Below are positions 9,901 through 46,876 of a DNA stretch of 64,000 nt, piece after piece. This DNA is from Mustelus asterias. Its lineage: Eukaryota. The notes beneath the pieces were generated by a model. The model saw only the letters and a list, made by a program, of their open reading frames with translations. It did not search any database and had not been told where the DNA came from. The translations under genes and the position numbers were made by a program. Position 1 is the first letter of the stretch. Each line of letters opens with the position of its first letter. The stretch spans positions 150,226,001-150,290,000 of the forward strand of contig NC_135801.1 of NCBI RefSeq assembly GCF_964213995.1, read 5' to 3'.

Positions 9901-10708
9901 CTGATAAATGCGAAGTGATGCATTTTGATAGAACTAACGTAGGGGGGAGCTATACGATAAATGGCAGAACCATAAAGGGTGTAGATACGCAGAGGGACCT
10001 GGGTGTGCAAGTCCACAGATCCTTGAAGGTGACGTCACAGGTGGAGAAGGTGGTGAATAAGGCATATGGCATGCTTGCCTTTATAGACAGGGCATAGAGT
10101 ATAAAAGTTGGGGTCTGATGTTGCAGTTGTATAGAACGTTGGTTCGGCCGCATTTGGAATATTACGCCCAGTTCTGGTCGCCACACTACCAGAAGGACGT
10201 GGAGGCTTTAGAGAGAGTGCAGAGGAGGTTTACCAGGATGTTGCCTGGTATGGAAGGGCTTAGTTATGAGGAGAGATTGGGTAAACTGGGGTTGTTCTCA
10301 CTGGAAAGACGGAGGATGAGGGGTGACCTAATAGAGGTGTATAAAATTATGAAAGGCATAGATAGGGTGAACGGTGGGAAGCTTTTTCCCAGGTCAGTGG
10401 TGATGTTCACGAGGGGTCATAGGTTCAAGGTGAGAGGGGCGGGGGGGCGGGGGGGGGGGGGGGGGGTGGCGAGGTTGAATATGGATATCAGAAGGACGTA
10501 TTTTACCGCAGAGGGTGGTGGGGGCCTGGAATGCGCTGCCGGGCAAGGTGGTGGAGGCGGACACACTGGGAACGTTTAAGACTTATCTAGATGGCCACAT
10601 GAACGGAGTGGGAATGGAGGGATACAAAAGAATGGTCTAGTTTGGGACCAGGGAGCGGCATGGGCTTGGAGGGCCGAAGGGCCTGTTCCTGTGCTGTATT
10701 GTTCTTTG
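9901..10708 (+). mobile_element. Young 5'-truncated CR1, subfamily B
   Basis: DKCEVMHF...LYRTLVRPHLEY...ERRRMRGDLIEVYK; highly similar to 28277-29320; premature stop at 10095-10097; G-run expansion at about 10435-10467. Confidence 0.95.
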
Positions 10709-42983: not shown

Positions 42984-43874
42984 GTGACCAGGATGTGGGA
43001 GGTCCTGGAGGCTCCTAGCCTCCCAGACGACCATATCTGTGCTGGGTGTGTTGAGCTGCGGTTCCTAAGGGACCATGTTAGGGAACTGGAATTGCAGCTC
43101 GAGGACCTTCGCCGGGTTAGGGATAGTGAGGAGGTCATTGACAGGAGCTATCGGCAGGTGGTCACACCGGGACCACGGGAGGAGGGTAACTGGGTAACAG
43201 TGAGGAAGGAGAAAGCTCGGGTGATGGTGAGCACCCCGGTGGATGTGCCCCTTAATAATAAGTACACCTGTCTGAGTACTACTGGGGTGGACAGCCCACC
43301 TGGGGGAAGCAGCGGTGGCAGTGTCTCTGGAGCTGAGCCTGGCCCAGTAGTGCAAAGGGGTAAGGAAAGGAGGGTAGTGCTAATTGGGGACTCTACGGTG
43401 AGAGGGTCAGATAGGCGTTTTTGCGGACACAGACGGGACTCTCGGATGGTGGTTTGCCTCCCTGGTGCAGGGGTCCGGGATGTCTCTGGTCGAGTCCCAG
43501 AAATCCTGAAGGGGGAGGGAGAGGAGCCCAAGGTCGTGATGCATATAGGTACTGCTGACATCGGTAGGAAGAGGGAAGGGGTCATGAAAAGAGAATATAG
43601 GGAGTTGGGTAGACAGCTGAGAAAGAGGAATGCAAAGGTAGTAATCTCGGGATTGCTGCCTGTGCCGCGGGAGAGTGAGAACAGGAATCGGTGGAGAATT
43701 AATGCGTGGCTGAGGGACTGGAGCAAGGGACAAGGATTTGGGTACTTGGATCATTGGGACCTCTTTAGGGGCAGGTGTGACCTGTTTAAAAAAGACGGGT
43801 GGCACTTGAATCCCAGGGGGACCAATATCCTGGCGGGAAGGTTGGCTAAGGCTACTGGTGAGACTTTAAACTAG
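42984..43874 (+). CDS. CR1 ORF1p: zinc-finger remnant, coiled coil and SGNH esterase domain (first CxxC missing)
   Basis: HICAGC, LRDHVRELELQLEDLRRV, IGDS, LPGA, HIGTAD and DGWHLN motifs; compare the intact N-terminus CSSCQMWE at about 48826. Confidence 0.9.
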   Translation: MTRMWEVLEAPSLPDDHICAGCVELRFLRDHVRELELQLEDLRRVRDSEEVIDRSYRQVVTPGPREEGNWVTVRKEKARVMVSTPVDVPLNNKYTCLSTTGVDSPPGGSSGGSVSGAEPGPVVQRGKERRVVLIGDSTVRGSDRRFCGHRRDSRMVVCLPGAGVRDVSGRVPEILKGEGEEPKVVMHIGTADIGRKREGVMKREYRELGRQLRKRNAKVVISGLLPVPRESENRNRWRINAWLRDWSKGQGFGYLDHWDLFRGRCDLFKKDGWHLNPRGTNILAGRLAKATGETLN

Positions 43875-46800
43875 AAAGGTTGGGGGGAGGGAATCGAAAT
43901 GAGGGGACTGAGAGCGAGGAGGTTAGCTCGCAAATAGATAAGGAATGTAGACAGGGTAAGAGGGAGGTTAGACGAGTGAGGGAGAAGGGAAGTGCTCAGG
44001 CTGAAGGTCTGAGATGTGTCTATTTTAATGCCAGGAGTGTAGTGAATAAAGTGGATGAGCTTGGAGCGTGGATTGCTGCTTCGAATTGTGATGTGGTGGC
44101 CATTACGGAGACTTGGATGTCTCAGGGACAGGACTGGGTGCTTCAGGTGCCGGGTTTTAGATGTTTCAGGAAGGACAGGGAGGGAGGCAAGAGAGGGGGG
44201 GGAGTGGCACTGTTGATCAGGGATAGTGTCACGGCTGTAGAGAAGGTGGACGCCGTGGAGGGACTGACTACGGAATCTCTGTGGGTGGAGGTTAGGAACA
44301 GGAAGGGGTCGGTAACTTTGCTGGGTGTTTTCTATAGGCCGCCCAATAGTAACAGAGATGTTGAGGAGCAGATGGGGAAACAGATCCTGGAGAGATGTAG
44401 GAATAACAGAGTTGTCGTGATGGGAGATTTTAATTTCCCAAACATAGATTGGAATATCCCTAGGGCTAGGGGTTTGGATGGAGAGGAGTTTGTTAGGTGT
44501 GTCCAGGAGAGTTTCCTGACACAGTATGTGGATAAGCCTACTAGAGGAGAGGCTGTTCTTGATCTGGTGCTGGCTAATGAACCTGGACAGGTGGAGGATC
44601 TCTCGGTGGGTGAGCATCTTGGGGATAGCGATCATAATTCTATCTCCTTCACGATAGCATTGGAAAGAGATAGGGTCAGGCAGGCTAGGAAAGTGTTTCT
44701 CTGGAGTAAAGGGAAATACGGTGTCATCAGGGAGGAAATTAGACGGGTAAATTGGAAGGAGGCATTCTTGGGGAAAAGTGCCGAAGGAAAGTGGAGGATT
44801 TTCAAGGAATGTTTGTCTGGAGCTCTGCATGACAACGTTCCGATGAGACAGGGGGGTGTTGGTAGGGTACGGGAACCGTGGTGCACGAAGGTTGTGATGA
44901 ACCTGGTGAATAAGAAAAGAGAGGCGTACAGAAGGTTCAGAGAGCTAGGAGGTGTTAAGGATTTAGAGGAGTATACGCGATGTAGGAAGGAGCTTAAGAA
45001 GGAAATTAGGAGAGCGAGAAGGGGTCATGAGAAGACCTTGGCGGGTAAGATTAAGGAGAATCCCAAGGCTTTCTACAAATATGTCAAGAGTAAAAGGATG
45101 AGATGTGAAGGCATAGGACCCTTAAAAGGTGAAGGGGGAAAAGTTTGTGCGGAACCGTTAGAAATGGCGGAGCTGCTTAATGAATACTTTACCTCGGTAT
45201 TCACGGTGGAAAGGGATCTGGGTGGTTGTACTGCTGGATTGCGGAGGACAGAAAGGATCGAGCATGTGGACATAAAGAAAGAGGATGTGTTGGAACTATT
45301 GAATGGCATCAAGGTTGGTAAGTCGCCGGGACCGGATGGGATGTACCCCAGGTTACTGTGGGAGGCGAGGGAGGAGATTGCGGAGCCTTTGGCGATGATC
45401 TTTGCATCGTCGATGGAGACGGGAGAGGTTCCGGAGGATTGGAGGATTGCGGATGTGGTCCCTATATTCAAGAAAGGGAACAGGGACAGCCCGGGAAATT
45501 ACCGACCGGTGAGTCTAACCTCAGTGGTTGGTAAGTTGATGGAGAGGATCCTGAGAGACAGGATTTATGATCATCTAGAGAAGTTTAGTATGATCAAAAG
45601 TAGTCAGCACGGCTTTGTCAGGGGCAGGTCGTGCCTTACGAGCCTGGTTGAGTTCTTTGAAAATGTGACCAAGCACATTGACGAAGGAAGAGCGGTGGAT
45701 GTGGTCTATATGGACTTCAGCAAAGCGTTCGATAAGGTCCCCCATGCAAGACTTCTTGAGAAAGTGAGAGGGCATGGGATCCAAGGGGCTGTTGCCTTGT
45801 GGATCCAGAACTGGCTTGCCTGCAGAAGGCAGAGAGTGGCTGTGGAGGGGTCTTTCTCTGCATGGAGGTCAGTGACCAGTGGAGTGCCCCAGGGATCTGT
45901 TCTGGGACCCTTGCTGTTTGTCATTTTCATAAATGACCTGGATGAGGAAGTGGAGGGATGGGTTGGTAAGTTTGCTGACGACACCAAGGTAGGTGGTGTT
46001 GTGGATAGTTTGGAGGGATGTCAGAAGTTGCAGCGAGACATAGATAGAATGCAAGACTGGGCGGAGAAGTGGCAGATGGACTTCAACCCGGATAAGTGTG
46101 TAGTGATCCATTTTGGCAGATCCAATGGGATGGAGCAGCAGTATAAAATGAAGGGTACCATTCTTAGCAGTGTAGAGGATCAGAAGGACCTTGGGGTCCG
46201 GGTCCATAGGACTCTTAAATCGGCCTCGCAGGTGGAGGATGCGGTCAAGAAGACGTATGGCGTACTGGCCTTCATTAATCGAGGGATTGAGTTTAGGAGT
46301 CGGGAGATAATGCTGCAGCTTTATAGGACCCTGGTTAGACCCCACTTGGAGTACTGCGCGCAGTTCTGGTCACCTCATTACAGGAAAGATGTTGAAGCCA
46401 TTGAAAGGGTGCAGAGGAGATTTACAAGGATGTTGCCTGGATTGGGGGGCATGCCTTATGAGGATAGGTTGAGGGAGCTTGGTCTCTTCTCCCTGGAGAG
46501 ACGAAGGATGAGAGGTGACCTGATAGAGGTTTACAAGATGTTGAGGGGTCTGGATAGGGTGGACTCTCAGAGGCTATTTCCAAGGGCTGAAATGGTTGCT
46601 ACGAGAGGACACAGGTTTAAGGTGCTGGGGGGTAGGTACAGGGGGGATGTCAGGGGTAAGTTTTTCACTCAGAGGGTGGTGGGTGAGTGGAATCGGCTGA
46701 CGTCGGTGGTGGTGGAGGCAAACTCGTTGGGGTCTTTTAAGAGACTTCTGGATGAGTACATGGGATTTAATGGGATTGAGGGCTATAGATAGGCCTAGAG

Positions 46801-46876
46801 GTGGGGATGTGATCGGCGCAACTTGTGGGCCGAAGGGCCTGTTTGTGCTGTGGCTTTCTATGTTCTATGTTCTATG
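42989..46876 (+). mobile_element. Near full-length young CR1 LINE (subfamily A), clipped at the start of ORF1
   Basis: ORF1 plus ORF2, short 3' UTR and (ttctatg)3 tail. Confidence 0.97.
43862..46792 (+). CDS. CR1 ORF2p: APE endonuclease plus reverse transcriptase, uninterrupted; the open frame begins at 43862 and the start mechanism is uncertain
   Basis: YFNARS, ITETW, GDFN, SDH (APE); KSPGPDG, NYRPVSLT, QHGF, DFSKAFD, GVPQGSVLGP, FADD (RT); no stops over more than 970 codons. Confidence 0.96.
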   Translation, partial: DFKLERLGGGNRNEGTESEEVSSQIDKECRQGKREVRRVREKGSAQAEGLRCVYFNARSVVNKVDELGAWIAASNCDVVAITETWMSQGQDWVLQVPGFRCFRKDREGGKRGGGVALLIRDSVTAVEKVDAVEGLTTESLWVEVRNRKGSVTLLGVFYRPPNSNRDVEEQMGKQILERCRNNRVVVMGDFNFPNIDWNIPRARGLDGEEFVRCVQESFLTQYVDKPTRGEAVLDLVLANEPGQVEDLSVGEHLGDSDHNSISFTIALERDRVRQARKVFLWSKGKYGVIREEIRRVNWKEAFLGKSAEGKWRIFKECLSGALHDNVPMRQGGVGRVREPWCTKVVMNLVNKKREAYRRFRELGGVKDLEEYTRCRKELKKEIRRARRGHEKTLAGKIKENPKAFYKYVKSKRMRCEGIGPLKGEGGKVCAEPLEMAELLNEYFTSVFTVERDLGGCTAGLRRTERIEHVDIKKEDVLELLNGIKVGKSPGPDGMYPRLLWEAREEIAEPLAMIFASSMETGEVPEDWRIADVVPIFKKGNRDSPGNYRPVSLTSVVGKLMERILRDRIYDHLEKFSMIKSSQHGFVRGRSCLTSLVEFFENVTKHIDEGRAVDVVYMDFSKAFDKVPHARLLEKVRGHGIQGAVALWIQNWLACRRQRVAVEGSFSAWRSVTSGVPQGSVLGPLLFVIFINDLDEEVEGWVGKFADDTKVGGVVDSLEGCQKLQRDIDRMQDWAEKWQMDFNPDKCVVIHFGRSNGMEQQYKMKGTILSSVEDQKDLGVRVHRTLKSASQVEDAVKKTYGVLAFINRGIEFRSREIMLQLYRTLVRPHLEYCAQFWSPHYRKDVEAIERVQRRFTRMLPGLGGMPYEDRLRELGLFSLERRRMRGDLIEVYKMLRGLDRVDSQRLFPRAEMVATRGHRFKVLGGRYRGDVRGKFFTQRVVGEWNRLTSVVVEANSLGSFKRLLDEYMGFNGIEGYR

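Follow-up and report, generated by a model that had tools for sequence, protein, structure and literature searches.

A slippery junction between the two genes of a CR1 element

How does a retrotransposon read a second gene that has no AUG near its start? The question is raised by a CR1-type long interspersed nuclear element (LINE) found in a 64,000-nt stretch of the Mustelus asterias genome (assembly GCF_964213995.1, contig NC_135801.1, positions 150,226,001 to 150,290,000 of the forward strand), which we call the window and whose own numbering is used throughout. Its first open reading frame (ORF1) encodes an esterase and its second (ORF2) an apurinic/apyrimidinic endonuclease (APE) joined to a reverse transcriptase (RT), and the two meet at a T_TTA_AAC heptamer that directly precedes the ORF1 stop codon. 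From what is set out below we consider it likely that programmed -1 ribosomal frameshifting (PRF) at this junction yields a protein of about 1,280 aa (307 + 973) in which ORF1 and ORF2 are fused. Conservation was assessed on 17 natural lineage representatives, 12 from this genome and five distant, 16 of which could be aligned (ORF1 C-terminal identity 24-95%, median 51%). The features of the element, all on the + strand, are the following.

42990..46876 (+), the CR1-type LINE copy, 5'-truncated and with its ORFs otherwise unbroken; sister copies match it from 42990 at 99.5-99.9%
42990..43874 (+), ORF1, an SGNH/GDSL esterase (PF13472, E 5e-13) of 294 codons in the window copy, ending ...GETLN-stop
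43862..46792 (+), ORF2 in the -1 frame: an ATG-less linker of about 50 codons, an APE endonuclease (PF03372, E 2e-22) and a reverse transcriptase (PF00078, E 1e-33)
43865..43871 (+), slippery heptamer T_TTA_AAC in the phase of ORF1, read from the sequence; invariant in 17/17 lineage representatives
43872..43874 (+), ORF1 stop directly after the heptamer; TAG in the window copy, TAG or TAA in every representative
43882..43891 (+), G-tract G5-N2-G3, conserved and separated from the heptamer by exactly 10 nt; a candidate for the stimulator
43914..43931 (+), gcgag/ctcgc hairpin; not conserved and not part of the signal
46856..46876 (+), 3' tail (TTCTATG)x3 without poly(A), read from the sequence

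Read by codons, ORF1 ends gag (43860) act tta (43866) aac (43869) tag (43872), with the heptamer in the phase X_XXY_YYZ. The initial annotation, made from the letters alone, had described this heptamer with its phase, its adjacent stop and their coordinates, and all of these hold on re-reading; so does its placing of ORF2 exactly in the -1 frame, open from 43862 and bounded by a TGA at 43859-43861. The long open frame that it reported is also there, with a length of 976 codons to 46792 (975 from 43865) in place of the 970 given. The first ATG of ORF2, at 44117 (codon 85), does lie downstream of the motifs YFNARS (codon 53) and ITETW (codon 80), and the codon at 43880 is TTG. That 13 nt are the only overlap of the two frames is true of the window and does not extend to other lineages, where the -1 frame is open for 1-37 codons upstream. 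The linker between ORF1 and ORF2 varies in length and is open in 16 of the 17 representatives, and six of the 12 from this genome have no ATG 5' of the first APE motif. ORF1 contains one in-phase slippery heptamer, that of the junction, and ORF2 holds four by chance. The 10-mer formed by heptamer and stop matches once in the 64-kb window, and at least once in 20 of 100 shuffles; since it is not improbable by itself in a sequence of this size, the case rests on conservation. The observation at the junction itself is confirmed.

Conservation within the Mustelus asterias genome

All 60 loci of family A, two of which are the window copy, carry TTTAAACTAG, and ORF2 lies in the -1 frame in 56 of them. 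Exact matches to the 32 nt of the junction number 1,621 in the genome (815 + 806), and a reversed control gave 0. As every one of these loci shares heptamer and stop and the 32-mer recurs so often, this is the real geometry of a family and not a lesion of one copy.

The genome was also searched with diverged ORF1 proteins, five of which yielded loci (groups B-F, 130 loci); a sixth (P0189) yielded none at E 1e-30. ORF1 ends in these groups were located by an alignment that omitted the last ten residues. TTTAAAC followed by TAG or TAA stood at the colinear place in 118 of the 130 loci and within 12 nt of it in four, and the end was different in eight. Where ORF2 could be placed, it was in the -1 frame in 101 of 123 loci, and the remainder look like decayed copies.

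As a separate observation, TGA does not serve as the stop after the heptamer in any of 190 loci of this genome, where TAG and TAA are used, though TGA would preserve Leu in the -1 frame. Copies in which the stop has mutated (TGG/TCG) were considered as a natural experiment and proved uninformative: they come mostly from an older, ~87%-identical subfamily, form no clade of their own and are intermixed with TAG copies of that subfamily.

Constraint beyond the amino acid sequence

Nine consecutive columns, TTTAAACTA, are invariant across the 17 representatives. The terminal Leu of ORF1 is encoded by TTA in 16/16 aligned representatives, as against 25 of the 227 Leu codons elsewhere (11%), and the terminal Asn by AAC in 16/16, as against 31/89 elsewhere. 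The third base before the terminal Leu is T in 17/17, despite a varying residue at that position. Among the other conserved non-Trp columns, 1/19 uses one codon only. Retention of heptamer, stop and -1 geometry beyond what the amino acids impose, by which the initial annotation had proposed that its reading be judged, is borne out by these codon counts and by the preceding T. Judged from its nucleotide sequence, the junction signal is real, ancient and strongly constrained.

Conservation outside the genome

A metagenome scan returned 24 loci with ~30% ORF1 identity, which we take to be bird-like. A recognisable ORF1 end was present in eight, with TTTAAACTAG in seven and TTTAAACAAG in one, and where the ORF2 start was in view ORF2 reads FKL in the -1 frame. 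Of the others, one (L071) continues without an ORF1 end and 15 end before it. Contigs of four public runs (four studies) gave 22 variant rows in 43830-43900 and 0 in 43865-43875 (variants >=10%).

Published work is cited here from the portions of each paper or supplement that were available. Among the CR1 consensus rows in the supplement of PMC13343379, which were picked by motif and thus carry no denominator, 17 of 20 listed motif matches are ORF1 ends by eye and three are not. The labels of the junction rows read as alligator, crocodile, coelacanth, bullfrog, bowfin, chimaera, sharks, rays and one teleost. The supplement of PMC7140322 gave 0 motif matches; that of PMC4316615, with one file outside the search, gave two, both in the 3' part of ORF2; neither covers the junction.

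Many CR1 consensus sequences among the rows of ~3.0-3.4 kb in PMC13343379 start a few hundred nucleotides before the junction, so that a part of the elements listed without ORF1 may owe this to a consensus truncated at its 5' end. A search for longer proteins that join ORF1 to ORF2 returned two matches. One of them is P0055, a ray protein that carries the wrong name hydroxyacid oxidase 2; in its annotation ORF1 and ORF2 are joined in a single frame as esterase-GGFKLD-APE. This join probably reflects a one-base indel, in a G-run of a dead copy, or a correction in the gene model, and is not counted towards function.

ORF1 termini in distant proteins

A profile search gave 150 cluster representatives (50% clustering), from which 54 fragments or unplaced proteins were dropped and 96, whose C-terminus lies 20-45 aa beyond the catalytic block, were used. 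A terminal tripeptide able to encode X_XXY_YYZ right before the stop is present in 60/96, against 502 of 10,847 internal tripeptides (4.6%). Over the whole set of 96 the last residues are LN in 51 proteins, GN in nine (all QGN) and SKN in one. The residue that precedes LN can be encoded by a codon ending in T in 50/51; it cannot in 1/51, against a background of 12% (binomial p ~0.01). QGN fits G_GGA_AAC and SKN fits A_AAA_AAC, and the list of the four heptamers most prone to shifting on mammalian ribosomes includes both of these as well as U_UUA_AAC (PMC5009743). The conserved heptamer and the fit of distant ORF1 termini to other shifty heptamers support the reading of the junction as a -1 frameshift site that the initial annotation had put forward.

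LN stands 25-39 aa after the catalytic block (block V), and it follows the position of the stop and not the protein fold. In a quick tree, which serves solely to show LN termini across several clades, these are found in several deep clades, and the QGN clade also includes FLN, SKN and two EN ends. Six of the distant ORF1s (P0105, P0117, P0140, P0170, P0145, P0178) end in FFH/FFR/FFN or in LEN/QEN and group in the tree next to proteins with LN or QGN; such ORF1s may use imperfect heptamers.

The region downstream of the heptamer

The G5-N2-G3 tract shows no indel in 17/17 representatives; its eight G columns are G in 16-17 of 17, and three of them are third positions of ORF2. The spacing appears shorter in a few published rows (PMC13343379 supplement). 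A two-tier G-quadruplex (G4) is in the minimum free energy structure of 6/17 representatives, and for 11/17 a G4Hunter-style score is in the top 1% of element windows, with a spacer of 10 nt. The initial annotation had proposed both this tract, as a possible G-quadruplex, and a nearby hairpin as stimulators. The tract stands as a conserved element at a fixed position, in which a G-quadruplex might form. The hairpin is indeed present at 43914-43931, and we rejected it as stimulator: it lies too far off (42 nt downstream), has a fold z-score of -1.21 and is private to the window lineage.

Partners for the G-tract were also sought within the element, where no CCC-NN-CCC was found. The best duplex in the window pairs it with a pyrimidine stretch near 46484; this was rejected, as the stretch encodes a GLFS motif whose codons vary in nine other copies, and L062 and L066 yield other best partners. 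Compared with a classical -1 PRF signal, the junction has an in-phase X_XXY_YYZ heptamer, a -1 ORF open from the heptamer and conservation at the nucleotide level, and folding z-scores, which do not model pseudoknots, and Rfam gave no stable stem-loop 5-9 nt downstream. The junction works like a classical -1 PRF signal but is not filed as the classical type.

Proposed mechanism and points that weigh against it

In the mechanism that we propose, most ribosomes would stop at the UAG and release the 307-aa esterase ORF1p, while a small fraction would slip one base back on UUA/AAC (to UUU/AAA). The slipped ribosomes would read ...GETLN-LERLGGG... through the variable linker into APE-RT, and the slip frequency would set a high ratio of ORF1p to fusion, as in gag-pol. 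More speculatively, the stop codon and the G-tract (protein-bound or folded into a weak two-tier G-quadruplex) might jointly cause the pause that favours slipping, with no pseudoknot involved. An evenly balanced proposition, in our judgement, is the wider one that vertebrate CR1 and several distant LINE clades with an esterase ORF1 produce their RT as a gag-pol-like ORF1-ORF2 fusion by -1 frameshifting, by a signal older than the split of sharks and bony vertebrates, with the heptamer swapped among U_UUA_AAC, G_GGA_AAC and A_AAA_AAC and with the adjacent stop plus the fixed G5N2G3, not a pseudoknot, as a stimulator of a new kind in vertebrates.

Several points weigh against frameshifting. The 17 representatives share kinship and are not 17 independent trials, and the query proteins for groups B-F carried their own terminal LN, a small bias. 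Among the 96 distant ORF1s, 36 have no compatible terminus, including two entire clades (of 7 and 8 proteins); the QGN and SKN termini are known as protein sequence only, and no DNA of these clades came from viral contigs or from the genome contigs searched with alignment A1. The 70 nt that follow the stop contain no stable fold by z-score (-1.75 to +1.36 across the 17 representatives), and Rfam gave no family above threshold and one chance-level microRNA match. At UUUAAAC, G4-driven -1 shifting peaks with a spacer of 6-8 nt and three-tier G4s, with 0.4% shifting in the absence of structure (PMC3919603), whereas the G-tract stands 10 nt from the heptamer; because of this mismatch in spacing and tiers a G4 fits in part, and binding by a protein is no less plausible. 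CR1-group elements without ORF1 have been reported (PMC13343379), so ORF2p need not be fused. Finally, an AUG lies at the stop or 2 nt after it in 5/17 representatives, and a NUG or AUN codon within three codons in 15/17, which bears on the first of the alternatives.

Alternative explanations

Ribosomes might instead terminate and begin anew on a codon, AUG or near-cognate, at or just after the stop (UAAUG, or the UUG at 43880 in the window), giving a free ORF2p, with the heptamer as a pause signal or minor second route. We hold this to be unlikely, though it is the most serious of the alternatives: a TAATG overlap is found in 2/12 representatives of this genome and in three published rows (ScyCan_CR1-1a, SquAca_CR1-17a, SquAca_CR1-6c), TAG-NN-ATG in 3/5 distant ones, and the frame set by UAAUG is also -1. 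There is precedent as well, in SART1, which relies on UAAUG and an RNA element downstream of it (PMC3708506; PMC10275272), and in L1, whose ORF2 starts independently of AUG (PMC5009743; PMC1965478). Nevertheless, the putative start codon varies (ATG, ATA, ATT, GTG, TTG, or nothing better than AAG/AGG) and shifts its place while the heptamer is constant, and the LN, QGN and SKN termini are not predicted by a restart. UGGGA, a motif complementary to 18S rRNA like that of termination upstream ribosome-binding sites (TURBS), varies in offset (-117 to -37) and is missing from the five distant representatives. Near-cognate starts lower TURBS reinitiation to at most 45% (PMC10275272), and therefore AUG should be conserved under reinitiation; it is not, being absent from the window lineage and present in the five representatives of 17 mentioned above. 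Frameshifting and reinitiation could coexist in some lineages.

It is much less probable that the heptamer is kept for some other reason, such as a required Leu-Asn C-terminus or an RNA or DNA binding site, with ORF2 expressed by an unrelated route. The C-terminal N is the sole invariant residue after L280 (alignment A1) and the G-tract also codes for G-x-G in ORF2, as this would have it; a protein constraint, however, is unable to fix the TTA and AAC codons or the preceding T, LN has no set distance from the catalytic block and in one clade gives way to QGN or SKN, and the G-tract is kept at third positions. Joining at the RNA level, by splicing into the junction (with the TAG or a nearby CAG as acceptor) or by polymerase slippage, seems to us the least probable of all. 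RNA splicing does seem to occur, as the intron-like segment of the 5' untranslated region (5'UTR) described below is precisely missing in one copy (L047), but no pyrimidine tract precedes the junction, lineages with TAA have no AG there, and TTTAAA is short for polymerase slippage. No spliced copy was found among the 20 examined of 22 with a changed A in the stop (18 point mutants and two 5' truncations), nor any joint at the junction in public contigs, a weak test as these are contigs of other organisms. Two other joints in those contigs, 638-1891 and 1289-1618, have short sides and resemble other families, and were not used.

The CR1 copy and its family

The CR1 anatomy follows from the esterase ORF1 and the APE-RT ORF2, both identified with Pfam, and from the (TTCTATG)x3 end. 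Truncated at 42990, the window copy has lost the 5'UTR together with 13 codons at the start of ORF1 that its sister copies possess, and full-length sisters have an ORF1 of 307 aa. Sister lineages F and D look, by eye, like rows labelled LINE/CR1 in a published consensus table, and the named relatives of ORF1 are for the most part from sharks and rays. Over the 451 nt compared, 40/40 scored matches are 100% identical; the family of the window copy is very young. In an older subfamily (L215-L234, L248-L262) the ORF2 DNA is ~87% identical and an identical junction 24-29-mer is retained. The window contains at least eight more decayed CR1-like 3' fragments, at 10285, 23068, 33127 and 48621 on the + strand and four on the - strand, recognised by a LFSLE-type motif.

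The 5'UTR of full-length sister copies (L010:631-750) includes a GT...AG segment of ~120 nt that ends just 5' of the ORF1 ATG. Among 29 loci with the upstream exon it is kept in 25, lacks 5 nt at its start in three and is precisely absent in one (L047). This suggests an intron in the 5'UTR of the family, the loss in L047 being as expected of a spliced RNA. We also noticed that a CR1 ORF1 esterase (P0023) stands in the database under the name of an SGNH hydrolase from Pseudomonas aeruginosa, likely by host contamination of a bacterial record.

Comparison with known systems

The junction shares its heptamer and phase with viral -1 sites such as that of 1a/1b in infectious bronchitis virus and other coronaviruses (U_UUA_AAC), where the polymerase ORF is likewise in the -1 frame, and the viral sites G_GGA_AAC and A_AAA_AAC are the alternative heptamers implied in CR1 ORF1 relatives (PMC5009743). 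It differs from the viral sites in that the host element is a LINE, the stop abuts the heptamer, no stem-loop or pseudoknot was found and a G-tract stands at a 10-nt spacer. The shift signal of porcine reproductive and respiratory syndrome virus (PRRSV) has a C-rich motif at a 10-nt spacer; the CR1 motif, by contrast, is G-rich and has no known binding protein. In PRRSV, where nsp1beta and PCBP stimulate shifting, a short low-complexity downstream motif takes the place of a fold (PMC5009743), which for CR1 is an analogy only. G4-stimulated shifting at UUUAAAC (PMC3919603) has in common with CR1 the heptamer and downstream G-runs, with at most a two-tier G4 predicted in CR1; whether natural sites use G4s was left open by its authors.

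Among LINEs, the APE-type TRE5-A and TRE3-A of Dictyostelium are stated to need a -1 frameshift for ORF2 (PMC5911963), like the CR1 proposal; they differ in having an amoeba host, another lineage and no esterase ORF1 described, and the passage available gives neither shift site nor experiment. For Paramecium elements, +1 shifting or reinitiation has been suggested. SART1 and L1 have bicistronic LINE mRNAs as CR1 does, and in SART1 ORF2 lies in the same relative frame and a downstream RNA element is needed (PMC3708506; PMC10275272; PMC5009743); yet SART1 and L1 yield a separate ORF2p, whereas the CR1 junction conserves a slippery heptamer and no AUG. The canonical CR1 of vertebrates (PMC13343379) has the same esterase ORF1 and APE-RT ORF2, and curated consensus rows show an identical junction. 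The words 'overlap', 'start codon' and 'translation' do not occur in the portion of that text available to us, nor 'frameshift' and 'slippery' in that of its supplement. A literature search found no report of CR1 frameshifting; older primary CR1 papers lie outside its coverage, and priority is not fully settled. The junction would present a known mechanism in an element class where it is not established, accompanied by a conserved G-tract.

Implications for CR1 biology

In most vertebrates, elements of the CR1 group dominate among the retrotransposons (PMC13343379), and the translation of ORF2 in LINEs other than L1 has been stated to be unclear (PMC3708506). If frameshifting at the junction is true, it would explain how CR1 elements read their second gene. 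Annotations that start ORF2 at a nearby or internal Met would have to be revised, and constructs that express ORF2 by itself would lack part of the protein. A shift site of the coronavirus type would then have been in cellular use for a very long time and at very high copy number, and the G-tract would be a candidate for a natural stimulator. In that case ORF2p of CR1 would be a fusion of esterase, APE and RT, and its attachment to the ORF1p coiled coil may offer a physical route to cis-preference and to the assembly of the ribonucleoprotein.

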